Of a stretch of 64,000 bases of DNA, positions 2,742 to 60,246 are shown piece by piece (position 1 is the stretch's first letter; each line of letters starts with the position of its first letter). The stretch is from a virus. Under the pieces are notes generated by a model, which worked only from the letters and a program-made list of their open reading frames with translations, had not been told where the DNA came from and did no database searches. Both the position numbers and the translations under genes were made by a program. Location of the stretch: positions 1 through 64,000 of IMG/VR virus record IMGVR_UViG_3300034082_004296, one strand, 5' to 3'.

Positions 2742-2776
2742 AAATAAACCAAAAATATGTCATTTATCAATTGGGG
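2739..2776 (+). repeat. 38-bp direct repeat, copy 1 (copy 2 at 3330-3367)
   Basis: taaaaataaaccaaaaatatgtcatttatcaattgggg identical in both copies; covers start region and MSFINWG codons. Confidence 0.9.
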
Positions 2777-3329
2777 ACATGAAAGTCCCGAGCAACGTAA
2801 AGCTCGTCAAGAGTGGGAAGATCAAATAATGTTTGAACAGATGTCCTACAGTGCCGCAGTTGTTGCTGCAGCTGCCACTGGTTCAGGTGGACTAAAAAAA
2901 CCTAGTGAATTTGTAGGAGAGGTCGACTGGTTAGTCGTTGCATCAACTGTGTTTACTCCTCCTGGAACCGACAACTATGAGGACTTCGACAACTGGGTCA
3001 CTGACACTTTTACACCTCTACTTGGTGTAAAGAGACTTGTGATAGTTGCTGATTCTGCGAATGCTCACACTCACGAAGAGCCATTTACCGATCTTACGAT
3101 CCAATTATTTAATAGTGTGACCTCTACCTGGACAACAGTATGGTCTTATAACCTCGTAAATCAAAACTATCCAGGCGGTGAAGGCGATGACTACTTTTTT
3201 AATGGTATCGACGTTACCTTTCCAGAGGTTGCATCGGTGACCAAGATCCGACTTACCTCTGATCCTGGCATAGGTCAGACATATCACGATTGGGGTCAGG
3301 ACTCTACACTGTTTAAATTCTATAAATAA
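2757..3329 (+). CDS. MSFINWG-leader family protein 1
   Basis: shared ~45-aa N-terminus ending in poly-Ala/GSGG; beta-rich unique body. Confidence 0.8.
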   Translation: MSFINWGHESPEQRKARQEWEDQIMFEQMSYSAAVVAAAATGSGGLKKPSEFVGEVDWLVVASTVFTPPGTDNYEDFDNWVTDTFTPLLGVKRLVIVADSANAHTHEEPFTDLTIQLFNSVTSTWTTVWSYNLVNQNYPGGEGDDYFFNGIDVTFPEVASVTKIRLTSDPGIGQTYHDWGQDSTLFKFYK

Positions 3330-3347
3330 TAAAAATAAACCAAAAAT

Positions 3348-4256
3348 ATGTCATTTATCAATTGGGGTAGTGAGAGCCCAGAACAATTAAAAGCTCGTCG
3401 AGAGATGGAAGAACGTATGATGTTTGAACAGATGTCATATAGTGCAGCAATAGCTGCGGCAGCCTCCGCTGGCGGAAGCCTAGATCCTTTACGAGGTTTA
3501 TTTGGAGTAGGAGCAGACGGTCTTATCTATAACCTAGGTAGAGGTGAGGCAAATTGGCCGTTTGATTCTGAGTCATTTCCTAGCTCGACAGTAATCACTC
3601 TAAACACGGATGATGATTGCTTATATGCGGCAGTCGATTTCGATGGGGAAGTATTTTTTATAAAGATCGACAAGACGACTAGGAAATGTTTGTTTTTTGA
3701 AAATGACATCAGCGATTATGTAACAAAGGGATCAAGCTCTCTGTATTATGAAGGTGATGGACGTTTTATCTACTTAGATAACTTTATCAAGAAGAGCGAT
3801 GTTTCTAGTATTATTCGAGTGACGCTAACCGAGTCGACAGCTGACGCTACTGAGGTTTCCGAAGTAGACTCGGTTGAAAAAGGATACTTGCTTAGAAACC
3901 TCTTCATATATGATGGAACTCCTTGGGCGATCGCGTACTCTGGACCAACCGTAATAATCGGGCCATTCGATATTGATGAGGGTGACTTTGTTTATTCTAA
4001 CCTTCTTCTTCCTTCTCCTAGCGATACTAGAGTGGAGGAAATACTTGCAGTATTCAGCACAGTCGAATATAATGGCACAGTATACTCAGCGATTGTTTTT
4101 GCAGATTCTGAACTGAGCGGTGATCCAAATATTGGACTCTTTAAAGTTGATACTGAGACTGGTGGTGCACTTGCTCCATACTATGTCTCATTCATCAAGG
4201 ATCTAAACCTTGCAGGTCATGGAGAAGTGCCAGTATTATCAATATTTAGTTACTAA
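3348..4256 (+). CDS. MSFINWG-leader family protein 2
   Basis: same leader; acidic beta-rich body, possibly propeller-like; TATAAATA at 3321-3328. Confidence 0.8.
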   Translation: MSFINWGSESPEQLKARREMEERMMFEQMSYSAAIAAAASAGGSLDPLRGLFGVGADGLIYNLGRGEANWPFDSESFPSSTVITLNTDDDCLYAAVDFDGEVFFIKIDKTTRKCLFFENDISDYVTKGSSSLYYEGDGRFIYLDNFIKKSDVSSIIRVTLTESTADATEVSEVDSVEKGYLLRNLFIYDGTPWAIAYSGPTVIIGPFDIDEGDFVYSNLLLPSPSDTRVEEILAVFSTVEYNGTVYSAIVFADSELSGDPNIGLFKVDTETGGALAPYYVSFIKDLNLAGHGEVPVLSIFSY

Positions 4257-4271
4257 AAAAATATAAAGTAT

Positions 4272-4601
4272 ATGAGACTATGCATACTATGTGAAAACGA
4301 AAATGTTGTTGATGCTAGACAAAGAGCAGCGATTGCCTTGCCTAAACATGAAGCCTTAATTGAAGCCATTGAATTAAAGAAGAAATTTAATCCTGATTTT
4401 TCAATAGATCACTTGACTATTCCTTTGTCTGAAACTGGTGAGCTTCCAGCAACACACTGGTTCTGCTTTATTAAGACTGATGAAGAGACTTATCAGAGGA
4501 TGCTTGCATCACAGATGTATACCATCATTGAAGAAGCAGTGCCTTCTGAATTTTTAGAAAAACATGGCCTAAAGAAGATAAAAAGTTTCGGGCCTAAATA
4601 G
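4272..4601 (+). CDS. hypothetical protein
   Basis: 109-aa ORF in operon. Confidence 0.65.
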   Translation: MRLCILCENENVVDARQRAAIALPKHEALIEAIELKKKFNPDFSIDHLTIPLSETGELPATHWFCFIKTDEETYQRMLASQMYTIIEEAVPSEFLEKHGLKKIKSFGPK

Positions 4602-4614
4602 GATACATTTAGAG

Positions 4615-5244
4615 ATGGAATCTTCTAATCATAAAGTAGTAAGGGGTTTCTTATCCCAATCAGAGAGAACACAAATACTTGATTTTGTGAATGAGATTAA
4701 CGCTCAAGTACTTCTTAACGATCATCATTTAAAATATTTAATTGGGAAGATTAATGGAAACTCTTACATGTACGATATATCTAGGACTGACCTTACTGGA
4801 AAGATAACTAGGTACCAATCTGGCGGAACGGTTATGGATCAGAAGCTTCCGGTGATTTTTGATAACTTAATCGATCGAATAGGTCAAACTATTAATATTC
4901 CGAAGGATCACTGTTTTTTACAGATTGTTGATATGGATAAGGGAGGAGTGATCGATAGACACTACGATACGGCTACTCAAGGTTTTATAAACTATAAGTG
5001 TAACGTGAGCGTGCTCTCAGAAAACTATGATTTTTGTGTAGACGGGGAGACAGTCAATGTCAATGAGGGAGACCTGTATTGTTTTGAGGCATCCTTATAT
5101 AAGCACTGGACTCCAAACCCGTTCCATTCAAGAAGAATACTTCTTAGCTTTGGTTTCATGATACCTTACGATAAACTCGGCAGAAAAGAGGACGATCCAA
5201 GAATCCGATTAAGTAATAGGATCGAAAGATACTTTCAGAGATAA
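4615..5244 (+). CDS. 2OG-Fe(II) oxygenase-like protein
   Basis: HYD...H...R pattern (RHYD, YKHW, SRRILLSF) of a DSBH dioxygenase. Confidence 0.65.
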   Translation: MESSNHKVVRGFLSQSERTQILDFVNEINAQVLLNDHHLKYLIGKINGNSYMYDISRTDLTGKITRYQSGGTVMDQKLPVIFDNLIDRIGQTINIPKDHCFLQIVDMDKGGVIDRHYDTATQGFINYKCNVSVLSENYDFCVDGETVNVNEGDLYCFEASLYKHWTPNPFHSRRILLSFGFMIPYDKLGRKEDDPRIRLSNRIERYFQR

Positions 5245-5266
5245 ATAACTTAAATCGATACCCATT

Positions 5267-6226
5267 ATGAGTAAAATTAGAATATTATCACTGGACGGAG
5301 GTGGACTCAGAGGAATCATACCGTTACTGATCCTAAAAGAGATCGAGAGAAACGAGGGTCGCCGAATCCATGAACTATTTGACGTGATTACTGGAACCTC
5401 GACTGGAGGAATAATTGCATGTGGTCTAACTTATACAAAAGACGGCAAGACACCGAGTTTGACGTTGGACCAACTAATCGAACTATATACGACTAGAGGC
5501 CATGAGATATTTCCATACAAGACTAATATTTTTTCAAAGGCGATCAGTGGAATCAATTCAATCTTTAATCCTAAGTTTTCTCCGACTGGACTAGACCGAC
5601 TTCTTGGTCAATACTTTGGTGAATCAACTCTTAGGGACACGTTAAAGCCAACTATCGTCACTTCATACGATATCAAGAATAACGAAGTTGTAATGTTCAA
5701 GAGCAGATTATCAAATGTGTCTAATGAATATAATGCTAGACTTAAGGATGTATGCAGAGGAACATCCGCTGCTCCGACATACTTGCCTTCTTATGAGATG
5801 AACTTTAAAGGTAAAGACCGACTCTTAGTTGACGGTGGAGTGTATATCAATAATCCAGCAATGGCAGCAGTCGCTGACGTATTGAAGAGCCGACCTGAAG
5901 TAGAGGTAAAGGATATCGAATGTCTTTCATTGGGCACCGGCATCTATGCCAAGAGTTTAGGCATAAAGACGACTGGTTGGGGAATGGCTGACTGGGTAAA
6001 ACCTATCACAACCCTAATGATGCAGGCATCAGCAAAGGTAGTTTCATATGAGTGTGATGAGATCTTATCAAATCACTTGAGATTACAGGTGAGTATTGAT
6101 GATGAAAAGAAGAGTGATATGGCAGATGCTCGACCAGAAACGACTAAATACTTAGTTGAACGTGTAAATTCTGAGATCATCAGTAACGATGAGACTATGG
6201 AGAAAATAAAAAACTTTTTTAATTAA
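5267..6226 (+). CDS. patatin-like phospholipase
   Basis: DGGGLRG, GTSTG nucleophile elbow, SAAPTY, DGG; late promoter GATAAATA 5240-5247. Confidence 0.9.
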   Translation: MSKIRILSLDGGGLRGIIPLLILKEIERNEGRRIHELFDVITGTSTGGIIACGLTYTKDGKTPSLTLDQLIELYTTRGHEIFPYKTNIFSKAISGINSIFNPKFSPTGLDRLLGQYFGESTLRDTLKPTIVTSYDIKNNEVVMFKSRLSNVSNEYNARLKDVCRGTSAAPTYLPSYEMNFKGKDRLLVDGGVYINNPAMAAVADVLKSRPEVEVKDIECLSLGTGIYAKSLGIKTTGWGMADWVKPITTLMMQASAKVVSYECDEILSNHLRLQVSIDDEKKSDMADARPETTKYLVERVNSEIISNDETMEKIKNFFN

Positions 6227-6561
6227 TGAAGACATACGTACAATTATTTGAGAGCTGGCACCGAGAGGAGGAGATTATTCTTACTTCTAGACAGGGACGA
6301 GAGATCGAAATTAAGGTCAAGCACGGTAAGATCGAGGAGATTGAAAATAGAAGCGGTGTGATCTTTCCATTCGTCACAGGCCAACCTCTTCAGATTCCAT
6401 TCATAAAGGGATGGGCATGTCGTAATGGCTTTAAATGGAACGGTGAAGACGCGTGTCAACCAGGCATGAAGCCTGAGAAAAAGATGTTTGGGATAAGACA
6501 TCGAGACATTCCTCAAGGTCACGAGTGGAGACGAATGTTTCCTGGAAAGTTTAGAGACTAG
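6226..6561 (+). CDS. hypothetical protein with capsid-targeting-like leader
   Basis: MKTYVQLFE N-terminus; coupled to patatin stop. Confidence 0.65.
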   Translation: MKTYVQLFESWHREEEIILTSRQGREIEIKVKHGKIEEIENRSGVIFPFVTGQPLQIPFIKGWACRNGFKWNGEDACQPGMKPEKKMFGIRHRDIPQGHEWRRMFPGKFRD

Positions 6562-6944
6562 AGAATTCCCGACTCTTCCATCAATTTCCTACACCCTTCC
6601 CAATCTACAAAAGGTCGATCTGATAATTCAGGATCCACTTTTAATGGGATTCCCAAGCAGATATCATCAATGATCAGTTGGCCATATGCTTTAGGCGAGG
6701 TTGTCCATGCTCTTTGTGTAGGATTCTCTTGGATTCCATACAAAGGGATATCGTGTTTCTCAAACCATTTTACGGCATCTTTTAAATAGTTGCCGCTTCG
6801 TGTATCGCTACGCATAGTAAAGAGAATTAGTCTATTTCCAGCCAAGACCAAGTCTCTTAATACTTCAGGTGCACCTATTTCCTTTCCAACATATGGAAAG
6901 TCATGGGTAGTACAGGTCCCATCAAAGTCTACTAATATGTCCAT
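6558..6944 (-). CDS. HAD-superfamily hydrolase
   Basis: VDFDGT, FTMR, IIDD motifs. Confidence 0.8.
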   Translation of the reverse strand: MDILVDFDGTCTTHDFPYVGKEIGAPEVLRDLVLAGNRLILFTMRSDTRSGNYLKDAVKWFEKHDIPLYGIQENPTQRAWTTSPKAYGQLIIDDICLGIPLKVDPELSDRPFVDWEGCRKLMEESGIL

Positions 6945-6954
6945 GTTTTAAAAT

Positions 6955-10128: not shown

Positions 10129-11508
10129 ATGTCTAATCGAGATGTTTATTGTTCGCCTACATTTGAATCGTTTGCGATATTTGAAGACTCTAATCTAAGT
10201 CAATTAGGTCTTCCTAAAGATATGATCAGAAAGATCCACACTAAAGAGGAGCACTATACCGAAAAGTATCCTCAAATGGGTCATACATATAAGTCAAGGT
10301 CAGCTGTTCCGATGCCATATAAATATTTTATCCCATCTCCAGACATTGAGATTCCAGAACCAATTAAGTTAAGAGGTCGTAAGTCTAATCGCAGTCCATT
10401 CCAGGACAAGGAGGTTAGGAGTGAATATACTGATTTCGCATGGTATCTACAGTCCATTCCTTTTGGAGAGATCAGGATCTTTGTAGTAAATAAAGAGATT
10501 GATTTTTTTATGTTTCTATATCATAAACAAGCAAGTAAAGGTGCTACTGGAGAACAGTATGCAGTAATGGCTTGGGACCCAGAGAGAAAGAAGGTGGTTG
10601 ATTATGGATACTCTGAATTGACAACTAGTGGAGTTGATCGCGAGCAACTAAGAGGGGTTCACGATACTAAAGGAGGAAACACTAACGGTAAGATCCAAGA
10701 GTTTGTTAGAGCTATGACTCGACAAGGAGGAAAAAAATACGCTCCTTCTCTAGAGAAACCTCTATATGTTTATGCTCTACCGGTTTCTCCAAATTACGAA
10801 CCTCGAGTTACTAGAGAAGCTAGAACTGCAGCAAAAGGAGAGACGTTATCTACTGATTTCTTAAGGGTGTTTGCATCAAAATTTGCAAAGTTAGTATCAC
10901 GTGCAAATCCAAACATTCAAGAAAAACTTATAAATCAAATAGATGACATGACCTCTTCATATGGATCGAAGATTGAATTTGGTGAGGTCGCATCAGCATT
11001 AGGATCAAACCCAGGTAGTACTCAAACTTGGTTATATACAAAGTTTAGAGATTTTAGAAAAGAACTTTTTGAAGAGGGCCGAGGCCGAACTCAAGGAGCA
11101 CCTAGTGCATATACCAAGACTTCAGGATTTGAATTAGAAAAAGAATCAACTGAAGCAAACTCGATTGGGGTACCGACATATGGTACTAGATATCAGGTGA
11201 CCAAGAAAAAATTTAGTCCAGACGAAGAGTCAGTGGATGCTGAGACTGGTTACAGAGAGGCTCAGCCTGAAAAATACAAGAGAGAGTTACCAATAGCTGG
11301 TGAATACGCTTCTATTCCGAGTATTATTGCTGCTCACACACTAGACGGAGCGATCGATAAGTTCGCAGCATTCCTAGTGACTGGAAAGATTAAGACTCCA
11401 GAAATAAGCATTGCTGGAGCCCTAGGCATCACTATGGATGATACGGATGATGAGTTCAAAAGGACATCATCGGCTAAAGGAAAAGCTTCAGGAAACTGGT
11501 TATTTTAA
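10129..11508 (+). CDS. hypothetical late protein
   Basis: 459-aa ORF; PTFESFAIFE near N-terminus. Confidence 0.75.
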   Translation: MSNRDVYCSPTFESFAIFEDSNLSQLGLPKDMIRKIHTKEEHYTEKYPQMGHTYKSRSAVPMPYKYFIPSPDIEIPEPIKLRGRKSNRSPFQDKEVRSEYTDFAWYLQSIPFGEIRIFVVNKEIDFFMFLYHKQASKGATGEQYAVMAWDPERKKVVDYGYSELTTSGVDREQLRGVHDTKGGNTNGKIQEFVRAMTRQGGKKYAPSLEKPLYVYALPVSPNYEPRVTREARTAAKGETLSTDFLRVFASKFAKLVSRANPNIQEKLINQIDDMTSSYGSKIEFGEVASALGSNPGSTQTWLYTKFRDFRKELFEEGRGRTQGAPSAYTKTSGFELEKESTEANSIGVPTYGTRYQVTKKKFSPDEESVDAETGYREAQPEKYKRELPIAGEYASIPSIIAAHTLDGAIDKFAAFLVTGKIKTPEISIAGALGITMDDTDDEFKRTSSAKGKASGNWLF

Positions 11509-14268: not shown

Positions 14269-14306
14269 AATATACTCTAAAAGTAAAGAGTATTAAAAGA
14301 TAAATA
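14269..14306. promoter_or_regulatory. divergent early (minus) and late (plus) promoters
   Basis: TTTAAT-N17-TATATT on minus (14269-14297) abutting GATAAATA (14299-14306). Confidence 0.5.
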
Positions 14307-14326: not shown

Positions 14327-15148
14327 ATGTCGTTTATCAATTGGGGTCATGAAAGCCCAGAACAGAAGAAGATACGCAGGAGGTTTGAGGAAGAACAGGC
14401 GATCTTTGAACAGAGAGCCGCTGCTGTTTCTGCGGCCGCTGCAGCTGCCGCTGGAAGTTCAATTAAACCTGGAATAAGCGTGCCAGCATACTGTGGAGGA
14501 GAAAAAATAGTACTTGACTTTGTAGCTATTGATTTTGATCTCTTAACAAGTAAAAAGTTTAAATTAACTGATTCTGACCTTGATAACTATGATAACTTAC
14601 AAGAGGACTTAGATACTCAGTTTAGGGCGGACCGTAATCAATACCTTAAGCGGCAGAATGCAAATAGATTCTTCCAAGAGGTAGGGCGAGTAAGCTCGAT
14701 CCAGCCAGAACTCCCATTGCCTACTCCAACTATCTATCATAAAGGTTTGACAATGACTTCTCCTTTTACTCGACGTCTTCCGGTGACAGAGTATCCGGAA
14801 TGGACCGAACTCAAAGGGGATCCTGAATCAAGCGCTTCTCAAAAGATGCCCAACGTAGAGTACATAAATTACCTAGAAGAGGTTGAACTGATCTTGGATC
14901 TGCCTTCTAGTGGATCACCGGGTGATGCGGTTTGGTGTATCGAAGATTCGACTTTTTATGCATGGGATCAGGGGGCTGGAGAGTTTTCAGCAGAGTTTCA
15001 TGAGCTGTGGCTCGAGCCGATTCGTCAGGCACAAAACTCTACTCGTGACTCGGCAGCGAAAAGCAAATTTGAGTTGATTCTCGCGTCTCGACCTTTCATG
15101 GCTGCCGCCAAGTATCTATTGGATTATAAACTAAAAAATAAATTTTAA
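14327..15148 (+). CDS. MSFINWG-leader family protein 3
   Basis: same leader; body contains DLPSSGSPGDAVW...FYAWD, a motif type seen in fibre proteins. Confidence 0.8.
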   Translation: MSFINWGHESPEQKKIRRRFEEEQAIFEQRAAAVSAAAAAAAGSSIKPGISVPAYCGGEKIVLDFVAIDFDLLTSKKFKLTDSDLDNYDNLQEDLDTQFRADRNQYLKRQNANRFFQEVGRVSSIQPELPLPTPTIYHKGLTMTSPFTRRLPVTEYPEWTELKGDPESSASQKMPNVEYINYLEEVELILDLPSSGSPGDAVWCIEDSTFYAWDQGAGEFSAEFHELWLEPIRQAQNSTRDSAAKSKFELILASRPFMAAAKYLLDYKLKNKF

Positions 15149-36580: not shown

Positions 36581-38136
36581 GATAAATCTACTATCTTATC
36601 TGATGTCTCAAATTTTTGTTCTCGATAGATCTCCTTTCTTACTTTTGCATGTCGAATCGAATAGCCATCGAGCTGATCGACTAGGTCCCAAACAAGGACT
36701 TTTGTCTTTTCGGCTAATTTTCTCATCCCTCGACCTATCGCTTGACGTAGGGTGACTTCAGCTTTTATTGATTCTGCTAAGATAATGTGGTGCAGATTCT
36801 TAGAGTCGATTCCAGTAGCAAAAGTACCGAAAGATGCGACCAAGATCACATCATCTTGTGATTCCAATATATCTTTAAATCGATCACGCTCTTTAGAGTC
36901 GACTTCGCCATCTATATAGAAGGTATTAGGGTTCCATTCCAATAATTTAGACTGGATTGCCTTTCCATAACCATTTTTGACGTCTGAAAAGAGGATCAGT
37001 GAGTTTTTTCCAAATTTTCGAGCAAGATCGCTAATAAAATCAAGTCTCTCCTTACTATCAAAGATAATTCCCTTTTCAATGGCTAACATGTCCCTCCCAA
37101 AGTCCTTGGGGTTGTTATACATCTCTTTTCCAGTCTCCTTGAGGTGCCAGTATTTTTGAATCATTGGATCCGATTCGTCATACTTTAGTTTGACAATCTT
37201 AATCTTAATATTTGGTGAATATCCATTATCAATTAGGTGTTTTGCTGAAAGAACCATCACCAATGGGCCAACATTTTCCTGCACTTTAAAGAAATCTGAA
37301 AACTGTTCATCTAGTTTAACGGTACCCGATAAACCAAGACGATATTCCCAATTGACGCAACATAGAAGGATCTCTCGAATGGAATTACCCTTAGACTTGT
37401 GTACCTCATCCACTTGAACTATTGAAAACTGTCGAAAGATTTCAACTGGGAGGTTTATTAGGCTCTGATAGGTTGAGATTACTATTTCAGCCGCATTGAA
37501 CCTCTCTTGAGTGAATTTGTCTTTACCTCCAATCGTACATACGTTCCATTCTTTACCAGGTCGAGCATACATTTCAAACTTTTCAGCGGTCTGGCCTACT
37601 AGTGAAATATTCGGGACTATAATTAGGGACTTCTTTTCTTTAGTAATCTTTCCTCCGTCTCTTAAGAATGAATTATAGATGAAAAAGATAAGGGTCTTAC
37701 CGGCAGAAGTCGCTAATTCTTGAGTACAAAACTTGTATTTAATTGCTCTAAATGCACCTTCTACTTGATAGTCCCTTGGCACGATTGGAAGGCCTCTCTC
37801 ATCAATAATTCCGTCCAGTAATTTCTCTACGTATTTTAGATACTGATCGCGACTTATTTTATTATTAACGAAAGTTTCTGCACCTTCAATCTCACAATCA
37901 TATCCAGACTTATCGGCAAAATTATAGATTTCCTTCCATAATCCAATGGCAATATTACCGTCCTTTGTAATAAATGAATCTAATCCGTCCCATACTCCAC
38001 GATCGACTAGGACATTAAACGCTGCTTTTTTAGATTTGCGCTTAAAAAACCTGAATAGACTAGTCTTTTCACTGTTTAAGGTGGAGTCAACTAGTTTGAT
38101 AAATTTCTTGTCTTGTGATACTTTGAATTTTAGCAC
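36562..38136 (-). CDS. uvsW: SF2 DNA helicase (T4 UvsW-like)
   Basis: PRDYQ, ATSAGKT, DEVH, GLSGT, QAIGRGMR. Confidence 0.88.
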   Translation of the reverse strand: MLKFKVSQDKKFIKLVDSTLNSEKTSLFRFFKRKSKKAAFNVLVDRGVWDGLDSFITKDGNIAIGLWKEIYNFADKSGYDCEIEGAETFVNNKISRDQYLKYVEKLLDGIIDERGLPIVPRDYQVEGAFRAIKYKFCTQELATSAGKTLIFFIYNSFLRDGGKITKEKKSLIIVPNISLVGQTAEKFEMYARPGKEWNVCTIGGKDKFTQERFNAAEIVISTYQSLINLPVEIFRQFSIVQVDEVHKSKGNSIREILLCCVNWEYRLGLSGTVKLDEQFSDFFKVQENVGPLVMVLSAKHLIDNGYSPNIKIKIVKLKYDESDPMIQKYWHLKETGKEMYNNPKDFGRDMLAIEKGIIFDSKERLDFISDLARKFGKNSLILFSDVKNGYGKAIQSKLLEWNPNTFYIDGEVDSKERDRFKDILESQDDVILVASFGTFATGIDSKNLHHIILAESIKAEVTLRQAIGRGMRKLAEKTKVLVWDLVDQLDGYSIRHAKVRKEIYREQKFETSDKIVDLSKKRPE

Positions 38137-38151
38137 GAGAGTGCATTATTT

Positions 38152-38586
38152 TTATAGACCCAGTGTCTTTTCTATATCGAGTCGAGTTTTGATACCAAAG
38201 ATGATATTATCGATGGTCTTGATGGATTCATTGAAAAAGGTGATCTGGTTCTCGAATATCTCTAGAGATTCTTTAGTTGCTGATGTCCTACCCTCGATTA
38301 CCATGTTTTTTTCGTTGGCTTGATATCGGATCTGAAGATTCCTTGAGATATTTTCCATCTCCAAAGAACGCTCATCCCTGTATTTTTTTCTAAGTAGAGT
38401 CACGTGTTCCAATAGAGTATGATTGTCTTCTAACAATCTTTGACGAAGGGAGAGCATGTTTACTTGTGCCTCCTTAAGAGTTTTAAGGTTGGAAAGCTTT
38501 TCAATATTTTCATAGATCTCTTTAGAGACTTCAGCACGTCTGTCCTGAAATTTTTTAGAAATCTTGGATTTTGTCTCCTCGTTCAT
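38152..38586 (-). CDS. UvsY-like recombination mediator
   Basis: 144-aa helical protein adjacent to UvsW; C-terminal IKTIDNIIFGIKT resembles UvsY end. Confidence 0.5.
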   Translation of the reverse strand: MNEETKSKISKKFQDRRAEVSKEIYENIEKLSNLKTLKEAQVNMLSLRQRLLEDNHTLLEHVTLLRKKYRDERSLEMENISRNLQIRYQANEKNMVIEGRTSATKESLEIFENQITFFNESIKTIDNIIFGIKTRLDIEKTLGL

Positions 38587-38629
38587 GCTAGAATAGTTTT
38601 ACTCTTTATACTCAAAAAAGAGGAAGGGT

Positions 38630-39121
38630 TTAACTCACAAAATCGATAAACTTATAATAGGTCGAGCCTATCTTAAAGTGTTCGTCGTTTACCATTTCGT
38701 CCTTACTTATCGATGAGACTACCTCGTTTCCTGCAGGAGAAGTCGAGCCGTCCTCAAAATAGTAATCAACAAATTCTTCACCTTTTTTACCAAGAATTAG
38801 GTTCTTGATCTTATATTTTTCAAAAATTTGTGGTATCTTATCTTTAAATGATACATCATCGTCAAGAACCATAAAGATGGATGGATAATCTATTAACTTA
38901 CCATCTTGACTAATAGCAGCAGACTGTTTTACATAATCGTCCTCAAGAAGATCAGAATCAAGAGCAGAGGTATAGGTCTCTTTGTCCTTGAATGTGATTA
39001 TCACAAAGGGAATCTTTGTTTGGATCGCATCCCTAACTTGGGTCCAAGTATGACTAGTCTCTTCAGTAGTAGACTTTATGTCCTGCTGATAGTCTTCGTA
39101 TAGTTTGATATATTTAGTCAT
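38630..39121 (-). CDS. hypothetical virion cargo candidate
   Basis: MTKYIKLYEDY; late promoter 39144-39151. Confidence 0.65.
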   Translation of the reverse strand: MTKYIKLYEDYQQDIKSTTEETSHTWTQVRDAIQTKIPFVIITFKDKETYTSALDSDLLEDDYVKQSAAISQDGKLIDYPSIFMVLDDDVSFKDKIPQIFEKYKIKNLILGKKGEEFVDYYFEDGSTSPAGNEVVSSISKDEMVNDEHFKIGSTYYKFIDFVS

Positions 39122-46800: not shown

Positions 46801-48702
46801 ATGGGATTTATTGATTTAGGACTCAATGGAGTGGCTGGAGACGGCCTTATAAACCTTTCAAGACCTGCCGGCATTAATCAAAACACGACAGGTAGCGGAA
46901 CTGATGAAAAGACAGCAAAGGTCGAAGGTGAATCTGGAAACCAGATACCCTTGATCGGTACAAGCTCTTCGTTTAACCCGTTCTATATCTTTAGATATTC
47001 AAATTTTGCAGCTGGAGCCAGTGCAAATACTACTGGTAATTATGACTTGGCAGGACACCGTTTGCTCTATGATACTGCAAGGTACCTTGGAGACTCGGCT
47101 GCAAGATTAAGAAATGCGGCTAGGGAAGAAGTTCAGGATCCAACTGCAACTAAGATAGTTAAGTGGGCAAACGATCAAGCCGTAAAAGGAGCGAATCATA
47201 AAGGGCCACTGTATCCATATCCGTACTCTCTTTCGGATTTTTATCACTGTAAATGGTACGGTCAGATACCTAACAATCGATTACTGACTCTTAGACGATA
47301 TCCTATCCCGGTTGAGGATAACTTAGCGGTAGCTGCTGAGAAGCTTCCATTGGTACCTATTGCACAAGCTGTTACTTGGTGGGGCGAAGGGACTGGCAAT
47401 ACACTAGGTAAGATCTTGGCAATGACTTGGGGGTTTAACTGGACAACGTATCCAAAAAAGGGAGAGGAGATTCAAGATGTACAGGGAAACGAAATACAGC
47501 TTGAACAAATATTCGATGTGCTTGGTATAAAAACGGAAAATGAGCCGGCTAGACAATTATTAATTACTGCATTTGCTAACCAGTCAGGAACAAATCCATA
47601 TGCCTTATCTGGATTCGATAAAGTCCTACAGGAAAACATAAAAAAACAATATGAGGACGGTGCGTATGCTAATCGAATAAGAGGACCACTTAATGTAATA
47701 ACGGAGACACAACAGAGAGATAGAGGATATACATTTTCTTCAGGTACTGGCGGTATCGTGTTAACTTTTGAATATAAGTTAAGGACTCTTGGAACTCCAA
47801 GACTTAATCCAAAGATAGTGATGTTAGACTTAATTAGTAATTTTCTAAGTTTAACATATAATAGAGCTAGCTTTTGGGGAGGAGGATATCGTTATTTTCA
47901 ACAGACTGGTCCATTATTGCCTGGGTTTAATACAGACAGTATGGAGAAAGGCGATTATGCTAATGCATCTAAGGATCTACTTTCAATGTTGACTCAAATG
48001 GTAGCTGGCGGTGGATCAGATCTTAAAGATTTTATAAATAAAGCGATTTCGGCTGCGGGAAGCAGTGTCACTGATACCCAAGGTATAGAAGACATATTTA
48101 AGACTGCTGTTGAGAGTAGAGTCGGACAAAATTTACTTGCATCTAGACTGGGCGCACTTCACCAGACCCCACTAGTGATGAGGGCACTGGCTGACGGTAG
48201 AGCAGTTGGCGAGTGGCACCTAATGGTAGGAAATCCAATGGATCCAGCTGCCGTGATAGGTAACTTAATCCTAAAGAGTACCTCCATTGATTTTGGAGAA
48301 GAGTTAGGAGCAGATGACTTTCCAACTGAAGTAAAATTTACAGTCACATTGGACCACGGTAGACCTAGAGCAAAGCAAGATATCGAATCAATTTTTAATC
48401 ATGGAGGAGGAGACATGTTCTTTACTGCATTAGAACCGCCAGCAAGTACTAGAAATTCATTTGGAGAATATAATAGTCAGAGGGCACTGGACACTAATGG
48501 AACATTGCCTACTGCAACAAATGGAGCAGCCGCTGCCCAGCGATCACAATCAACTGCTACATTATCAGATAATGGAGCGACAGCTAACGCGGAAAACTTA
48601 GCAAACTATTTTAAAAAAGATGTTGAAAGAAGATACGGAGACGGATTCGCCAAGTCACCTATACTTACAGACTATTTCTTAAAACTATATACAAACGATT
48701 AA
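46801..48702 (+). CDS. putative baseplate/tail structural protein
   Basis: first gene of a late operon (promoter 46776-46783) containing gp53- and gp5-like genes. Confidence 0.55.
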   Translation: MGFIDLGLNGVAGDGLINLSRPAGINQNTTGSGTDEKTAKVEGESGNQIPLIGTSSSFNPFYIFRYSNFAAGASANTTGNYDLAGHRLLYDTARYLGDSAARLRNAAREEVQDPTATKIVKWANDQAVKGANHKGPLYPYPYSLSDFYHCKWYGQIPNNRLLTLRRYPIPVEDNLAVAAEKLPLVPIAQAVTWWGEGTGNTLGKILAMTWGFNWTTYPKKGEEIQDVQGNEIQLEQIFDVLGIKTENEPARQLLITAFANQSGTNPYALSGFDKVLQENIKKQYEDGAYANRIRGPLNVITETQQRDRGYTFSSGTGGIVLTFEYKLRTLGTPRLNPKIVMLDLISNFLSLTYNRASFWGGGYRYFQQTGPLLPGFNTDSMEKGDYANASKDLLSMLTQMVAGGGSDLKDFINKAISAAGSSVTDTQGIEDIFKTAVESRVGQNLLASRLGALHQTPLVMRALADGRAVGEWHLMVGNPMDPAAVIGNLILKSTSIDFGEELGADDFPTEVKFTVTLDHGRPRAKQDIESIFNHGGGDMFFTALEPPASTRNSFGEYNSQRALDTNGTLPTATNGAAAAQRSQSTATLSDNGATANAENLANYFKKDVERRYGDGFAKSPILTDYFLKLYTND

Positions 48703-52090: not shown

Positions 52091-52771
52091 ATGATGTTAG
52101 ACCGTAATCACGACATATCAAACAGGGACATAAACGACCTATTGGATAAGCAATTCTTAGGAGTTGTCGAGCTCATAGACGACCCTAGAAAGGAAGGTCG
52201 AGCCAGGGTTAGAGTATATAGCATCCATGACGATCTGCCCGCTGAGGATATACCATGGGCATATCCTAAAAACAAGAGTCTGTTCTTTGGACAAGGAGGC
52301 AAGGCCGGTTCAATCTCTATACCTAAAGTAGGAAGTATTGTTGCCGTTAGATTTGACAATGGTAATCCATACTCACCAGAATATTTTGCAATCCACGAAT
52401 TAGCACAAGATATCAAGGATGAGTTGAATACTGAGTATGATGGAAGCCATATCATTCTATTCGATGGAGACCAGGAGTTAAAGCTGTGGTTTACCGTAGG
52501 CAAAGGGCTAACTATCTCAGTAAAGGGCGCAAGTATTAACTTAGCACCGGATAACCTAATAACAATCAAGACTGATAATAAGGTGGTAGTTGATTCACCT
52601 AATATCGAATTAGGGTCACCAGACATTCCAAGCATATCAGAATATCTATTAAAGGGGGAGACTTTTCTTAACATGTTTAATACTCATGTACACCCATCAT
52701 CTGGCACTCCACCGCTAACTCCGATACTTCCAGACAGTGGAGTAATAAGCGGAACCACAAAAACTAAATAA
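52091..52771 (+). CDS. baseplate central spike protein (gp5/VgrG OB-fold)
   Basis: GVVELIDDPRKEGRARVRV...IPWA...IPKVGSIVAVRF; C-terminal NTHVH. Confidence 0.85.
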   Translation: MMLDRNHDISNRDINDLLDKQFLGVVELIDDPRKEGRARVRVYSIHDDLPAEDIPWAYPKNKSLFFGQGGKAGSISIPKVGSIVAVRFDNGNPYSPEYFAIHELAQDIKDELNTEYDGSHIILFDGDQELKLWFTVGKGLTISVKGASINLAPDNLITIKTDNKVVVDSPNIELGSPDIPSISEYLLKGETFLNMFNTHVHPSSGTPPLTPILPDSGVISGTTKTK

Positions 52772-54454: not shown

Positions 54455-55462
54455 ATGGATCACTATGCAAATTTAGGAGTTCCCAAGACTGCTACCCAAG
54501 AAGAGATAAAAAAAGCATATCGAAAGCTTGCAGTAAAGTATCACCCAGACAAGACTAATGGTAACAAGGAGTCGGAAGAGCTTTTTAAAAAGATTTCAGA
54601 CTCATATACTGTGCTCTCAGATGAAAGGAAGAGGGAAGAGTATGATAAAAAATCTAGAGTAAATTCTAACTGGTCTTCAGGATATGAGAGCACGGGTTTT
54701 GGATTTGACGATTTTGTGAGAAATTTTGCGGATGCCGACTTTAGAAGAAGATCGAGTGATCGCGCAAGAAAGACACAGGGACGCACTCATCCAACTCCAC
54801 CTAAAACCGAACATCTTAATATTTATGTACACGATAAAATAGATTTAAAGGACGCGATTTTAGGTAAAAAGATCGAGATAAGTTTTAGTAGAGAAAAAAT
54901 AAATTATACTGGCAAGGCAGGTAACACGTTAACCTTTGATAAGATCGATGAGGAGAAAGAGATTAACATTAGTATCGACCTTAGAAAAAAATACATTGCG
55001 ATTAAACGTGATACTGGAGCATACATAATATCTGCTAGGGTACCTGGTCTAGGAAATGAGGATGTAATCACACAGTTAAACATATGGGGAGAGATTGAAC
55101 AGGTTCCTCTGATGGGAGACTTGCATGTGACACTGGAACTAATTATGCCTGAAAACATTAGGATCGAGGATAACTGCGTGATACAAACAGTCGATATATC
55201 TTTATCAAAATTACTCTTTAATGAGACCAAGATCAAGATAGAGACGATTGTCGACAAAAAATACGAAGTTGACTTTAATGGTCCGAAATCTGCATCTAAT
55301 CTTAAGTTTTCAATACCTAATGAAGGACTGGTTGATGGCCAAGGTAAGATCGGAGAATACCTAGTAAAATTTAACGTGACCTTGCCTCAGGTTGAAGAGT
55401 TACCAAATAAGGATTTAGTAAAATTAAAGTCGATATTATTAAATTGCGAAAATAAAACTTAA
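54455..55462 (+). CDS. DnaJ-family co-chaperone without zinc finger
   Basis: J-domain with KYHPDK; DnaJ C-terminal-like domain. Confidence 0.9.
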
Positions 55463-55508
55463 AAAGTTTAAAGAAGCCCTTAATAAATAATAAAAAATAT
55501 TTTGGGCT

Positions 55509-57485
55509 TTGTCAAATCTAAAATCAGCACAAACTAACACTAACGATTGGGTACTAATCGTTGAAAATGTAGGTGAAAAACTTCAAGTAAGGGATTCATC
55601 TACGACTGGCACAGTCCTCGAAGGAGTATGTGCGGTATTCGGTCAGATGAATAACAATCGCCGAGTATACGAAAAAACGGAATACTTACCTCACCTTACC
55701 TATCTTCAAGAAAAGATTAATAAGCGTCAGTTAGTAGGAACGGTTGACCACCCTCAACATTTCGAACCAAAATTAAGCGAAGCTTCACACATTATTGAAG
55801 GCTTAACATATGACGGTGGAGATAAAGTATACATTAAAGTAAGACTCCTAGAAAACACTCCACATGGTAAATTAGCGAAAGCATTACTTGACGGAGGAGT
55901 TCAGTTATCAGTTTCTTCAAGAGCAGCTGGACAGGTAAGTGAGAGTGGTTATGTAAAATTACAGCGAATCTTTACCTATGACTTAGTAGGAGAACCTGGA
56001 TTTACTGATGCAATTCTACGTAAAACAGTTAGTGAATCACTAAAGAATGACTTTTCAATGATTACTGAGAGTTATAACTCGATGAAGGAAAACTCTTTTA
56101 TTCATAAGTCTGGACTAATGGATATTTCAGAAAATTTAAACTTTGCAGATAATTTTAAAGTCTATAAGATAAATAAATTAGAAAATGGTTCAGGAACACA
56201 GTTCCGAGGAACTTTGCAAGAACAAAAAAATAACAACACAATGGCCGAGTTTGTAACAAAAGAACAAATGGACAAATATTCAGAAGTTCTTAAAACACAA
56301 TTCAATGGAATTAAAAAAGAACTTAAAAATCACAAGTCTGTTTTGGAGTCTGCTCAATCAGGTAATGGATCAACTAATTCAGAATTAGTTGGATTCGTAA
56401 ATTATTTAGCAGAATCTCTAGAAGGAGTGATTAATTTCGCTGATTATCTTTCTCACAAACTAAACGAGTCAGTTAAATATACTGAGCACGTTTCTGAGAC
56501 AGTTAACAACTCTATCGATTATTCTTCTTATTTAGGAGAAAAATTGAACCAGTCAGTTAACTATCAAGATTACCTTTCAACTAAGGTGAACGAGTCAATC
56601 AACTACGCAGAGTATATTAAAGAAAATGTAAACAATTCTATTAAGTACCAAAATTATTTGGCTGAAGAACTAGATAAAGGATTACAGTATGTTGAATACG
56701 TTGCTGAAGGAACTAATCGTTCTATTGAGTTCGGAGAATATCTTTCAGAAAATATTAACTTAAACAGAGATTACTCTCAATATGTTGCTGAAAAATTAGG
56801 ACAGTCTATTGGATACTCTGAATATTTAGCTGAATCTCTAGGAGACGGAAACCATGTAGGTACTCGAAATGTTTTAGGTAAAGTTTCTAAATTAAATGAA
56901 TCTAATTCAATTGACAATCTAATCTCTAAGGTTGATCAAGTGATTACTGAAGTAAACGATAAGTCATCTAAAGCAGTTCTTGAGAGCAAGTATCCTTTCT
57001 TAAAGGTTATGGGAGAAGCAAACAAGAAAGTTTTCTTTAACTTACAATCAGACACTAAACAAGCTATCGTTGAAGCTCTTAACGGATCAGTTTGGTTTAA
57101 CGAAAACGACATCGTTGGTATCATGGAAGCTGTTGTAAATCACAAAGAACAAAATATTCCTACCTATATCAGATTCATGCCAGTAGAATACAAAGCTACT
57201 TGGAACGAAATGAATGAAAACGAAAAAAGTAAAGTTCACGCAAAAGCACAGCTTTATACAGTAAACACTCCATACCAAGTTAAAGCATTTTGGGATGATA
57301 TTGATATGAGAGGAATCAATGAAAGAATTGAAACACAAAAATATAACACAAAAATAACGCAACAACTCAACGAGAGCCAAAGTACAGAAGGCTTAATACC
57401 TGTAAATCAGGTTGTTGAGATGCAGAGAGGTTACTCTCAAGGTTACTTAGAAACAATGTTGAGAAACGCTGGTTCTAGATTGTAA
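55509..57485 (+). CDS. prohead protease (gp21-like) fused to repeat scaffold
   Basis: NNNRRVY, GTVDHP, VSSRAAG, TYDLVGEPGF; TTG start; late promoter 55482-55489. Confidence 0.85.
   Translation: MSNLKSAQTNTNDWVLIVENVGEKLQVRDSSTTGTVLEGVCAVFGQMNNNRRVYEKTEYLPHLTYLQEKINKRQLVGTVDHPQHFEPKLSEASHIIEGLTYDGGDKVYIKVRLLENTPHGKLAKALLDGGVQLSVSSRAAGQVSESGYVKLQRIFTYDLVGEPGFTDAILRKTVSESLKNDFSMITESYNSMKENSFIHKSGLMDISENLNFADNFKVYKINKLENGSGTQFRGTLQEQKNNNTMAEFVTKEQMDKYSEVLKTQFNGIKKELKNHKSVLESAQSGNGSTNSELVGFVNYLAESLEGVINFADYLSHKLNESVKYTEHVSETVNNSIDYSSYLGEKLNQSVNYQDYLSTKVNESINYAEYIKENVNNSIKYQNYLAEELDKGLQYVEYVAEGTNRSIEFGEYLSENINLNRDYSQYVAEKLGQSIGYSEYLAESLGDGNHVGTRNVLGKVSKLNESNSIDNLISKVDQVITEVNDKSSKAVLESKYPFLKVMGEANKKVFFNLQSDTKQAIVEALNGSVWFNENDIVGIMEAVVNHKEQNIPTYIRFMPVEYKATWNEMNENEKSKVHAKAQLYTVNTPYQVKAFWDDIDMRGINERIETQKYNTKITQQLNESQSTEGLIPVNQVVEMQRGYSQGYLETMLRNAGSRL
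56168..56175 (+). promoter_or_regulatory. internal late promoter for nested scaffold
   Basis: GATAAATA inside protease gene, upstream of in-frame ATG 56241 with A-rich leader. Confidence 0.5.
56394..56843 (+). repeat. about 11 tandem 14-aa (42-nt) repeats in scaffold
   Basis: units such as YSSYLGEKLNQSVN, YQDYLSTKVNESIN, YAEYIKENVNNSIK. Confidence 0.85.
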
Positions 57486-57513
57486 CAAAAAACTAAAAAA
57501 ATCATTTTAACAA

Positions 57514-59172
57514 ATGGCACGTACTAAAATTTTCAAACGTTCAAGCGACAATCGCTTAGCGAACACATGGCAGCCGATTTTAGAAGGTTACGGTGCTGAT
57601 GTTGCTAAGACTCCATGGTTAGCTGAGTATGCTCACAACCACGCGATCTTTGATAACACTACACCTATCTTCGAGCAAACGACTCCAGGTGTATTTTTCC
57701 AAACTCCAGGTTCTCTTGGTGGTTTTATGGGGAACCCATCAGCTCCAACATCAGCAATGACTCCGTTCACTGCAGGTGCTAAGAATTCTTTCTCAGCTGA
57801 TGCTAACGGTTCAGGTGATAAATTTCCATCACTTTTACCAGTTGCTATTCAAGTAGCAGCAAAAACTATTGGTTTTGACCTAGTTCCAGTTATCCCTATG
57901 GATTCTCCAGTTGGATTCCTTCCTTACTTGGATTATCTATATGCTGGCGGTAGAACTTCTACTGGTAACTTCGATCCTTATTTGGTTAAGTTAGAAGGTT
58001 TAACATCAGATAGCTTCGCTGTTGCTCTTACTCCTGGTGATGCAGTAGCTATTGTTCCTGCTGGTGATTTCACAGCAGAGTTCGTTGGTTATTCACGTGT
58101 AGACGGTACAATAATCATCAAGATCACAGACGACGGTTCAGTTGACGGCGCTACTACTGCTGCTGCAGAGTATGTTGGTGCAGCGATTACTATCGATGGT
58201 AACGCCCTTGTTGTTGGTGCTGCATGTACTGGAGTTTCTCTAGTTTCTGCATTAGAAAACCACATCTCTGGTTTCACTTCAGTATCTGATGCAGATTACG
58301 CAACTACTCCATTCAATGGTTCTTACCTTCCTTCTACAGGATCTGTACCTGGATCAATGAAGAGAGAAGCTGGTGAAAACTCTAAATTCCGTCAAATGGG
58401 ATTAAGAATGTTCACTAAGTTTGTTGAGGCTGAGACTGACCAAGTTTCTATCTCTGCAACTGTTGAGCAGATCCAAGACTTGAACAGAGTTTGGAACTAT
58501 GACGTTATCTCTATGTTAGAGAACGTAGCGGTTAATGACTTGGCTCAATCAATCAACAAAAGATTAGTTGACCGTGTATTACAATTAGCTGATGTTCACT
58601 CTACAGAAGTTAACTTAGTTGAAGGTGGTGGTGGTGTTATTACTGACCTTGACTTGACTGCTGGTGGATTTGATAACACTTCTACATTACAAAGAAGATT
58701 AGTTACTAAAGTTCTTGAAATGGCAAACTTGATTTACCATAGAGGACGTTTCGGAGCTGGTACTTTCTTAGTAACTAATGGACGTGTTGCTTCTGCAATG
58801 GCTGATGTTGCTGGTTACTCAATCGCGCAAGTTCCAACTGATATGGGTGGAGTTGCAGGTAACCTTTACCCAGCTGGTAAAGTTTATGGAGTACAAGTTT
58901 ACGTTGATCCTAACATGGCTTGGGGAGACTCAAGAATCATGATTGGTCGTAAAGGTGCTGACGAAGAGCCAGGTGTTAAATTCATGCCATATATCATGGC
59001 TGAATCTCTTCAGACTATTTCTGAAGGTACATTCTCTCCAAAAATCGGTATGAAATCAAGATACGCGATTACTGAAGCTGGATGGCATCCTGAAACTCAG
59101 TACATTAATATTAATGTTACTGGAGCTGCTCTTGGAGTTCTTACAGGTTCAAATGTACTAGTAGGTATCTAA
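57514..59172 (+). CDS. major capsid protein (T4 gp23-like)
   Basis: DLVPVIPMDSPVG, EQIQDL, PYI...TFSPKIGMKSRYA; follows protease; strong codon bias. Confidence 0.92.
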   Translation: MARTKIFKRSSDNRLANTWQPILEGYGADVAKTPWLAEYAHNHAIFDNTTPIFEQTTPGVFFQTPGSLGGFMGNPSAPTSAMTPFTAGAKNSFSADANGSGDKFPSLLPVAIQVAAKTIGFDLVPVIPMDSPVGFLPYLDYLYAGGRTSTGNFDPYLVKLEGLTSDSFAVALTPGDAVAIVPAGDFTAEFVGYSRVDGTIIIKITDDGSVDGATTAAAEYVGAAITIDGNALVVGAACTGVSLVSALENHISGFTSVSDADYATTPFNGSYLPSTGSVPGSMKREAGENSKFRQMGLRMFTKFVEAETDQVSISATVEQIQDLNRVWNYDVISMLENVAVNDLAQSINKRLVDRVLQLADVHSTEVNLVEGGGGVITDLDLTAGGFDNTSTLQRRLVTKVLEMANLIYHRGRFGAGTFLVTNGRVASAMADVAGYSIAQVPTDMGGVAGNLYPAGKVYGVQVYVDPNMAWGDSRIMIGRKGADEEPGVKFMPYIMAESLQTISEGTFSPKIGMKSRYAITEAGWHPETQYININVTGAALGVLTGSNVLVGI

Positions 59173-59194
59173 TCTTAATAGACAGATATAAATT

Positions 59195-59223
59195 AAAGAG
59201 GATTCGAAAGAGTCCTCTTTTTT
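59195..59223 (+). terminator. intrinsic terminator after capsid gene
   Basis: aaagaggattc-gaaa-gagtcctcttt followed by T-run. Confidence 0.8.
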
Positions 59224-59260
59224 GTTTATGGAGATAAATAATAAAAAACTTATAGAAATT

Positions 59261-59629
59261 ATGACAAGTTTAATGTCAACATTCTTAGGAATACAATCTC
59301 AATTTAAAGTGTTTCATTGGCAGACACAATCTTATGCTAAACATCAAGCATATGGTGGAATATATGATACACTTAGTGAATTATCTGACGATTTTATGGA
59401 AATATACATGGGAAAATACGGTCGAGTAGCCCTAGAGGGAGATACTGATTCTATCTTATTAGGTAATATTGGAGAAGTAAACATAGAGGAATTCCTGGAC
59501 ACTATTGTAGAATTCTTATTAAGTTTTAATCATAAGCTAGATGGTAACAAGGACAGTGATCTCTTAAATCTTAGAGATGAGATGCTAGCTGCAATTAATA
59601 AGCTTAAATACTTATTAACTCTAAAATAA
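59261..59629 (+). CDS. ferritin/Dps-like four-helix protein
   Basis: FHWQTQSYAKHQAY...DDFMEIYMG...LRDEM...KYLLTL; start moved to ATG 59261 after late promoter 59233-59240. Confidence 0.7.
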   Translation: MTSLMSTFLGIQSQFKVFHWQTQSYAKHQAYGGIYDTLSELSDDFMEIYMGKYGRVALEGDTDSILLGNIGEVNIEEFLDTIVEFLLSFNHKLDGNKDSDLLNLRDEMLAAINKLKYLLTLK

Positions 59630-59640
59630 TTTTAAGAAAG

Positions 59641-60246
59641 ATGTCATTTATAAATTGGGGACACGAGACACCTGAACAATTACAGGCTCGTAAAAAAATG
59701 GAAGATACTCTTCTTTTTGAACAGGCAGCATATAGTGCGGCAATGGCGGCAGCTGCCGCTGCGGGATCAAGCGCACCACTTAGTACATACATTGTGACTA
59801 TCGATACTGCATGGCTATATCCAATAGCTGATATTGACTATGTTCTTGAAACTACTGAGATTAACTTTGTACAGGAAGGAAATGATCTTATTTTTAATAC
59901 ACTAGGCGATCTTACTGATTTTTACGATGAGGTATTTATTAAAACATCTGAGAGTCAGCCAGTAGGGAATGTTGGATATTCACTTGGAGTAGGTACACTA
60001 TTGTTAGAAAAGAGAAAATCTCTTAATTTAAAACTTAGTACTGGAGAAAAGGTTGTTACGTGGAGATTATTTGAACAATTAACAAATCAAGAGGACGTAC
60101 TTAGTCCAGGAAATTCGCCAGATGGCACCATTGGATATGGTTCTATCTACAACGATTATGATCTAAATGGAATACAAGATCCAACTAATGCAAGCCCGCC
60201 TCCTGCATATTCAGATCCACTCAGAATTATTAAGTATATTGATTAA
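59641..60246 (+). CDS. MSFINWG-leader family protein 4
   Basis: MSFINWGHETPEQ...AAAAAGSS leader; unique body. Confidence 0.8.
   Translation: MSFINWGHETPEQLQARKKMEDTLLFEQAAYSAAMAAAAAAGSSAPLSTYIVTIDTAWLYPIADIDYVLETTEINFVQEGNDLIFNTLGDLTDFYDEVFIKTSESQPVGNVGYSLGVGTLLLEKRKSLNLKLSTGEKVVTWRLFEQLTNQEDVLSPGNSPDGTIGYGSIYNDYDLNGIQDPTNASPPPAYSDPLRIIKYID

Follow-up and report, generated by a model that had tools for sequence, protein, structure and literature searches.

The 64,000-nucleotide stretch of viral DNA treated here (IMG/VR record IMGVR_UViG_3300034082_004296; hereafter the window, which makes up the first 64 kb of a viral contig of 176 kb with an estimated completeness of 70%) carries four genes whose products begin with the same leader, opening M-S-F-I-N-W-G, and then continue into unrelated bodies. 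Comparison of sequences supports a portable N-terminal module that is followed by a flexible tether and by exchangeable bodies. The leader family is real and undescribed and is a variant of a known principle; its place in or on the virion is something that we infer. Tentatively, with rather less than an even chance of being right, the leader is taken to be an uncleaved docking plug on the outer capsid surface similar to those of Hoc and pb10, and the rivals to that reading are weighed below.

The genes, all on the + strand and referred to by their first nucleotide, are 2757..3329 (190 aa, with leader residues 1-45 preceding the body; leader hidden Markov model (HMM) E=2.4e-32), 3348..4256 (302 aa; E=5.5e-31), 14327..15148 (273 aa; E=2.2e-28) and 59641..60246 (201 aa; E=8.3e-31). 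They had been singled out in a first-pass annotation, made from the letters of the sequence, as four open reading frames with a common leader, unrelated bodies and, for two of them, an identical start region, and each of these claims is borne out. When the window was scanned for the motif in six frames, the leader turned up at these four starts only, and among 2273 stop-to-stop frames of the whole contig the leader HMM has four matches with E from 2e-28 to 2e-32, the next being E=1.8. Twenty leader positions are identical in all four proteins. Past the leader the best BLASTP E is 0.72, and HHalign probabilities between the four body families are 0.4-12%. Genes 2757 and 3348 are identical, letter for letter, over 38 nt between -18 and +20 relative to the ATG; this block, the longest in-register identical run, comprises an upstream TAAAAATAA element and the first 20 nt of the coding sequence (2739..2776 and 3330..3367, both +). 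Gene 59641 does lie two genes past the capsid gene, as had been noted: a Gp23-type capsid gene at 57514-59172 is followed by a DUF5856 gene and then by 59641.

Range and anatomy of the leader family

That the leader belongs to no described family, as the annotation had surmised, agrees with every search made. The four window proteins are without a match in Pfam (E<=1) or among the PHROGs (E<=0.01), neither blastn of 2300-6300 nor tblastn of the 273-aa protein of 14327 has a match among GenBank phages, and not one of ~8.4 million papers and preprints contains the string MSFINWG. Searches of large databases with the leader region or with the 14327 body, the latter word-index limited and covering lengths of 150-478 aa, retrieved metagenomic 'hypothetical proteins' only. 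Among 1.84 billion proteins the leader profile matched 99 cluster representatives, of which 97 have a match starting in residues 1-6 and are true members; the other two were rejected as false positives, the match being internal and in low-complexity, unrelated proteins. IMG/VR has the leader at 35 loci on 20 large contigs. Five related genome fragments (32-51% complete) hold 4, 4, 3, 2 and 3 copies and the present contig holds four. Leader proteins range from 42 to ~1100 aa, and 129 bodies cluster to 46 similarity groups, 15 of them with at least two members; the groups to which the window bodies belong number 5 (2757), 13 (3348), 11 (14327) and 5 (59641).

The leader occurs in a single clade, made up of uncultured phages of ~250 kb whose capsid is of T4 type. 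The leader is absent from three sister-clade genomes that are at least 93% complete (capsid 62-65% identical) and from two less complete ones, on all of which was used a query that scored all five positive controls. As that sister clade has short N-terminal tags and no leader, the leader is a clade-specific addition rather than a replacement. Gain and loss occur within the leader clade also, for in genome G002 the neighbours of 2757 and 3348 are present and these two are missing. Leader genes appear to be decaying in G004, as one of its copies (L038 3001-3216, protein P0059) has leader residues 1-26 joined in frame to the ~45 C-terminal residues of a cupin/hydroxylase-like protein, which looks like a deletion remnant, and the other is a 45-aa stump (L034). 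The intact counterpart of the fusion partner is at window 4615-5244, two genes downstream of 3348.

Phylogenetic profiling for a partner gene was tried and given up: 57 of the 203 G000 proteins are present in at least one of three leader-positive genomes and absent from both leader-negative genomes, which is too many to single one out. The best-looking candidate, 2415-2741, was rejected since it does not adjoin leader genes in G001-G003.

The leader is laid out as an MSFINWG hook, S/T-P-E-Q, a helix with R17, E21 and L-F/Y-E-Q, and a variable tether rich in Ala, Gly and Ser. The 45 conserved residues first ascribed to it need trimming: conservation holds for a core of ~30 aa, but the Ala/Gly part is a low-complexity tether that spans 10-25 residues, differs in length and sequence among members and is often polar (RARAGQAPG, for example). 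Among 109 in-register leaders M1, F3, I4, N5, W6, G7, E9, P11, E12, Q13, R17 and E21 are near-invariant, L25, F/Y26, E27, Q28 and A29 are less conserved, and conservation is strongest in residues 1-13. S/T10-P-E-Q reads as a helix N-cap, and the near-invariance of residues 1-13 with R17 and E21 fits what a lock-and-key interface would require. AF2 models of two members, 59641 and 14327, have residues 1-10 as coil and ~11-40 as one long low-confidence helix, then a disordered tether (pLDDT <50) and the body. Readings of the leader as a Sec/Tat signal, a transmembrane segment or a double-glycine RiPP leader were dropped by eye, the linker being polar in most members and bodies extending to ~1100 aa.

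The bodies for which a family can be named are all binding modules. When 63 representatives were scanned against Pfam, with body domain types examined additionally in 19 relatives, eight of the 61 that bear the leader and have at least 150 aa had a match at E<=1e-3, to Laminin_G_3 (a concanavalin-like lectin), leucine-rich repeat (LRR) types including BspA, DUF285, or PKD, and the remaining 53 had none; no enzyme family, and no beta-helix, tailspike or depolymerase domain, was met among the 61. For the window bodies there are leads, and only leads, from the ESM Atlas: discoidin/F5-8-type-C-like for 2757 (feature score 0.89-0.91, structure TM ~0.5) and beta-propeller-like for 3348 (Kelch/RCC1/lactonase-type clusters at 0.80-0.88). 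AF2 has the 14327 body as alpha+beta with long helices (mean pLDDT 68.5; residues 100-240 mostly >80) and the 59641 body as alpha/beta (mean pLDDT 71; residues 50-170 ~85), and the two cores differ in architecture. Foldseek of these two against PDB had no match at E<=0.001. With VIA-align wide the best Z was 5.1 for 59641 (SH3b-type wall-binding domains) and 4.4 for 14327 (leader helix only), both under the tool's stated noise level; the lack of fold matches does not make the folds new. The 14327 body carries a conserved P..G.PG...W hairpin, and the motif that had been called fibre-type, DLPSSGSPGD..W, is conserved in the 14327 family, while the fibre label itself found no library or fold support. 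At the other end of the size range, 28 of 122 distinct leader proteins have at most 80 aa; ten of these are leader, tether and a C-terminal acidic-aromatic YVENDYIDNYFE-type tail, and mini-proteins of 66-72 aa with leader and such a tail recur.

Docking plug, propeptide and other readings

The first-pass annotation placed all four genes in late-promoter units, and for 3348 and 14327 this is so directly, as each has its own ATAAATA core (3322..3328 (+), at -26; 14300..14306 (+), at -27). For 2757 and 59641 it would hold via upstream genes. One core at 2391..2397 (+) is ahead of gene 2415-2741, which directly precedes 2757, and another, at 55483, is at -26 of the protease/scaffold gene 55509, from which the protease/scaffold, capsid, DUF5856 and 59641 genes are consecutive and in one direction; 2757 presumably shares a unit with 2415, and 59641 with 55509. 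What does not survive is the strict T4 late promoter TATAAATA as the late element, since the window has eight occurrences where 6.7 are expected. The late-type element is instead ATAAATA(A), ~-24 to -27 of the ATG and often then (C)TAAAA(A)TAA. Of 203 genes 40 have ATAAATA at -55..-11, the expectation being ~1.4%; the 40 include the protease/scaffold gene, the tagged 633-aa gene at 46801, fibre-like genes and tagged genes as well as 2415, 3348 and 14327, and the PolA polymerase, helicase and topoisomerase genes that were checked lack ATAAATA. The neighbourhood of 59641 is also recurrent. A leader gene follows the capsid gene in 16 of 79 related capsid loci, of which 65 have at least 2.5 kb of downstream sequence, at +87 or ~+460 nt, with a body that varies by phage so as to give 68, 71, 133, 171, 200, 298-312 or 936 aa; the order capsid, DUF5856, leader gene is found also in L012. 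Outside this slot leader genes are lone, often in opposite orientation, amid small genes.

The composition of the bodies bears on where they act. The median body (n=87) has 2.7% Lys and an isoelectric point (pI) of 4.2, with pI <5.5 in 85 of the 87; within the window the 2757 body has pI 4.3 and 4.1% Lys and the 3348 body pI 4.1 and 3.5% Lys. Proteins of the genome with tags like the T4 capsid-targeting sequence (CTS), a set of 26 defined by a loose regular expression, have 9.7% Lys and pI 8.3 (p=6e-13 for Lys and 3e-10 for pI against bodies, Mann-Whitney), and other proteins have 7.6% Lys (p=5e-31). External virion proteins (n=12, hand-picked: the capsid protein, portal, baseplate proteins, the 633-aa late protein at 46801 and fibre-like proteins) have 3.9% Lys and are not distinguishable from the bodies (p=0.07). 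The products of the fibre-like genes, with 1-2% Lys, are nearest to body composition. Lysine-poor acidic bodies together with lectin, LRR and PKD domains favour surface display.

In the mechanism proposed, the N-terminal aromatic hook M-S-F-I-N-W-G, a capped helix with R17 and E21 on one face and the tether of 10-25 residues would form the docking module. Late in infection all leader proteins would bind to one conserved site on the virion exterior, most likely one of the capsid shell, much as T4 Hoc or T5 pb10 do. With all leader proteins at one site, the particle would carry mixed small, acidic, lysine-poor heads, some lectin, LRR, PKD, discoidin-like or propeller-like and others of unassigned fold, and new heads could be gained through recombination at the conserved promoter and leader DNA. 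We infer docking, its site and the retention of the leader on the protein; that the plug would stay on an exposed protein is suggested by the acidic, lysine-poor composition, the adhesin-type domains, the length and near-invariance of the leader and its having been added within one clade. The modular docking tag displaying surface domains that had been put forward at the outset keeps its module, its tether and its exchangeable bodies, and loses its fibre-type label. No Hoc/Soc-type PHROG was met among 175 contig proteins scanned, a set from which short proteins and five boundary-spanning ones were left out. A more far-reaching version, which we regard as improbable, has one 30-residue plug hanging at least 15 head families on the same repeated capsid sites, so that each virion would bear a combinatorial adhesin mosaic; recombination at the conserved promoter and leader DNA would reshuffle the heads among phages, and the 66-72-aa mini-proteins would act as space-fillers or staples for empty sites.

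Several observations weigh against an uncleaved plug on the capsid surface. The 14327 body is less lysine-poor than the other three window bodies, the AF2 models cover two of the four window bodies (14327 and 59641), and the majority of leader genes are away from the head genes. The strict position at residue 1, the conserved promoter and leader DNA and the turnover of cassettes also fit the internal-protein genes of T-even phages. Further, 115 of 120 distinct leaders contain a motif [LIMVFA][FYLMI]E[QA], for which chance would give 0.015 per 45 aa. The motif is mid-leader, 10-25 residues ahead of the body; 93 leaders have it at residue 27 or 28, and in ten its Glu is at residue 35 or 36. Where the usual site has degenerated (LFQQ, for example), a new K-L-F-E-A-R stands ~8 residues downstream. 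The grammar of the motif equals that of the capsid protein's putative maturation site, the L/I-X-E grammar of T4. This capsid site, P-I-F-E|Q at residues 51-55 of the 57514 product, is conserved in position over 55 distinct N-termini and has the form P-[ILV]-F-E|[QNSA] in the leader clade and [SA]-[IL]-N-E|[SA] in the sister clade; a low-complexity stretch follows both it and the leader motif.

Because the leader motif matches the capsid's putative protease site, a cleavable prohead propeptide is a serious rival, though one that we think doubtful. The leader would then be an extended T4 CTS that directs its protein into the scaffold core, the gp21-like protease would cut at L-F/Y-E|Q and perhaps at G-x-E9|S, and the bodies would be inside the head and leave with the DNA. 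The phage has the parts for this: a prohead protease (Peptidase_S77, gp21-like; Pfam S77 E=1.4e-10) fused to a repeat scaffold at 55509..57485 (+), a Gp23-type major capsid protein at 57514..59172 (+; Pfam Gp23 E=3e-35), and, in wide use in the genome, short T4-style N-terminal tags ending [LIVF]-x-E|[SAGQ], a motif that is repeated in the scaffold. For T4, PMC9026906 puts the cut after L/I-X-E and propeptide length at 7-65 residues, and describes the propeptides of giant phages as having redundant sites. Also in favour of this reading are the leader's strict start at residue 1, the moving rather than loss of the motif in ten members and the conserved promoter and leader DNA. A homology between the leader and the N-terminal propeptide of the capsid protein was considered and rejected, HHalign giving a probability of 1% with only a six-residue motif aligned. 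That motif is the best local match between the two profiles and the sole one, so leader and capsid N-terminus share site grammar, not ancestry. In the same vein, the leader's separateness from the capsid-targeting motif, claimed earlier, holds for sequence, as the leader HMM matches no tagged protein, and is less clear for function, where protease-site grammar is shared.

What speaks against cleavage is that the bodies differ so markedly in Lys and pI from the basic tagged proteins and resemble external virion proteins, that their domains are lectin, LRR and PKD with no enzyme, and that the leader is 2-3 times longer than the loose tags of 10-19 residues and far more conserved, with its peak of conservation at residues 1-13 and so off the putative cut site. 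G-x-E9 mismatches the hydrophobic P3 of this phage's tags, spurious cut motifs are not significantly depleted in the bodies (observed/expected 0.90, z=-1.25), and sister-clade phages have the short tags and do without the leader, which points to an addition. A docking run with capsid 57-552, scaffold 240-480 and a 60-residue leader, each with its own alignments, scored 0.00 and counts neither way.

Docking elsewhere on the virion, at the tail, neck or baseplate, would make the leader a 'conserved peptide' of the receptor-binding protein (RBP) type on a branching protein and the bodies a multi-headed adsorption apparatus. Several proteins per genome with one N-terminal peptide is what the sections of PMC6872550 on branched RBP systems describe. 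The bodies are binding modules that come nearest the fibre-like products in composition, and their genes turn over as accessory cassettes. This is nevertheless unlikely, with leader genes outside the tail and fibre modules and their sole recurrent position adjoining the capsid gene, with bodies devoid of beta-helix, tailspike or depolymerase domains in the representatives scanned, and with many bodies being small, as the count of proteins of at most 80 aa attests. Least probable, and held to be distinctly so, is a role apart from the virion, with the leader a handle for a common intracellular partner such as a chaperone, modifying enzyme or regulated protease, or else an unconventional export signal. 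The virion location of leader proteins is itself a presumption, the phage encodes DnaJ- and GroEL-like chaperones, and in G001 a cupin/hydroxylase-like gene accompanies the 3348-type gene; set against these are the late-type promoters common to leader and structural genes, the composition like that of external virion proteins, the recurring leader-gene slot beside the capsid gene, and a leader that in most members is too little hydrophobic for a Sec/Tat signal, often with a polar linker.

Relation to known systems

By sequence the leader is a member of none of the systems with which it invites comparison, namely Hoc/pb10, the branched RBP peptides and the T4 CTS; by the grammar of its site the T4 capsid-targeting and propeptide system is the closest. 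The likeness to T4 Hoc and T5 pb10, as the parts of PMC10385173 and PMC5292684 dealing with these proteins portray them, is that of a small, helix-rich conserved anchor, a linker and variable exposed binding domains, encoded by dispensable accessory genes with one gene position near the capsid gene. The exposed part is acidic in both cases, the Hoc fibre having pI ~4-5 (PMC10385173) and the leader bodies a median of 4.2. Leader proteins are without sequence or family match to described decoration families, however, and the Hoc anchor is C-terminal, whereas that of the leader proteins is N-terminal and of only ~30 residues, with capsid binding here a presumption. Hoc and pb10 are single-gene proteins with strings of Ig-like domains, while the leader is on two to four or more paralogs per genome fragment, with ~15 body families across the clade that include lectin, LRR, PKD and others.

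What is shared with the T4 CTS and propeptides, going by the relevant portions of PMC9026906, is a strictly N-terminal position on unrelated proteins in a phage with a gp21-type protease and a Gp23 capsid, together with a L/I-x-E-type motif, conserved leader DNA and exchanged bodies. In contrast to the T4 CTS, which spans 10-19 residues and is loose, the leader has 27-36 residues up to the motif and ~45 up to the body and is nearly invariant, at 13 positions of its ~30-residue core; it has no sequence kinship to the genome's own CTS-like tags (the next-best leader HMM match being that of E=1.8), and its bodies are binding modules that are acidic and poor in lysine, where the tagged proteins are basic. 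The N-terminal peptides of branched RBP systems are group-specific, with lengths down to 7 residues, and KP32, KP34, Menlow, PhiK64-1, K1-5/SP6 and G7C, as summarized in PMC6872550, are like the leader proteins in having one group-specific N-terminal peptide, divergent bodies and a modular plug-in. The bodies of those systems, by that summary, are trimeric beta-helix depolymerases encoded in an RBP cluster, unlike the bodies and scattered genes here; no T4gp10-like partner was identified in the present case, no search having been aimed at one, and the leader goes beyond the RBP conserved peptide in its capped helix and its long flexible tether.

Were the leader to prove a universal surface plug, it would give the first capsid-decoration system with multiple paralogs, would provide a sequence-readable adhesin list of a phage lineage, with a bearing on sticking to particles, mucus and non-host surfaces, and would offer a compact 30-residue natural tag for protein display on T4-type capsids. 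Should it instead be a cleavable propeptide, large proteins with lectin or LRR domains would have a second address, besides the classical CTS, for entry into T4-type heads. Either way, the leader profile retrieves ~100 cluster representatives with ~15 families of unannotated bodies and serves as a clade marker.

Other features of the contig

The contig codes for a portal, a head-closure protein, a baseplate hub, pieces of a PolA-type polymerase, primase and helicases, with topoisomerase II, PhoH, DnaJ and a patatin-like protein also present and, farther along, terminase, GroEL, a 1063-aa sheath and a gp55-like late sigma factor (contig 109555-109953). In GenBank the capsid protein is closest to those of uncultured huge phages and Prevotella Lak phages, at 31-37% identity only. 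It is 87% identical overall to that of one relative, with an ~80-residue hypervariable stretch with indels at residues ~160-240, likely an inserted surface domain that evolves under diversifying selection. The protease and scaffold are one 658-aa frame with a TTG start, 55509-57485, whose product matches the PHROG head maturation protease at E=3.9e-34 and whose scaffold part has repeats of the form YL..LNE|S (14 residues, YL..KLNES-type); its true start is uncertain, as the first ATG is 47 codons in, in many relatives. The DUF5856 gene between the capsid gene and 59641 (59222..59629 (+); Pfam DUF5856 E=2.6e-17) goes in PHROG by the name 'starvation-inducible transcriptional regulator', and its position before the leader-gene slot is kept in relatives.

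A 3348-type leader gene, a 109-aa gene and a cupin/Asp-Arg-hydroxylase-like gene form a travelling block (window 4272-5244; G001 36936-38811), with a different genomic place in G001; the cupin/hydroxylase-like call is a weak Pfam match, E=0.003, and its product may be a modifying enzyme for the neighbouring leader protein. A second common N-terminal word, MSNRD(V/I), opens a 459-aa protein (window 10129-11508) and an 1813-aa protein (contig 119791-125232), and ISNRDIN is close to the start of a baseplate-hub-like protein (window 52091-52771). The tail sheath (1063 aa, contig 88660-91851) has a large N-terminal extension, since its sheath homology is confined to the last ~350 residues. In the sister-clade genome G006 a ~9-kb stretch at ~43-52 kb (L122) has, on either strand, several open frames whose translations are repetitive, which suggests a long low-complexity repeat gene.

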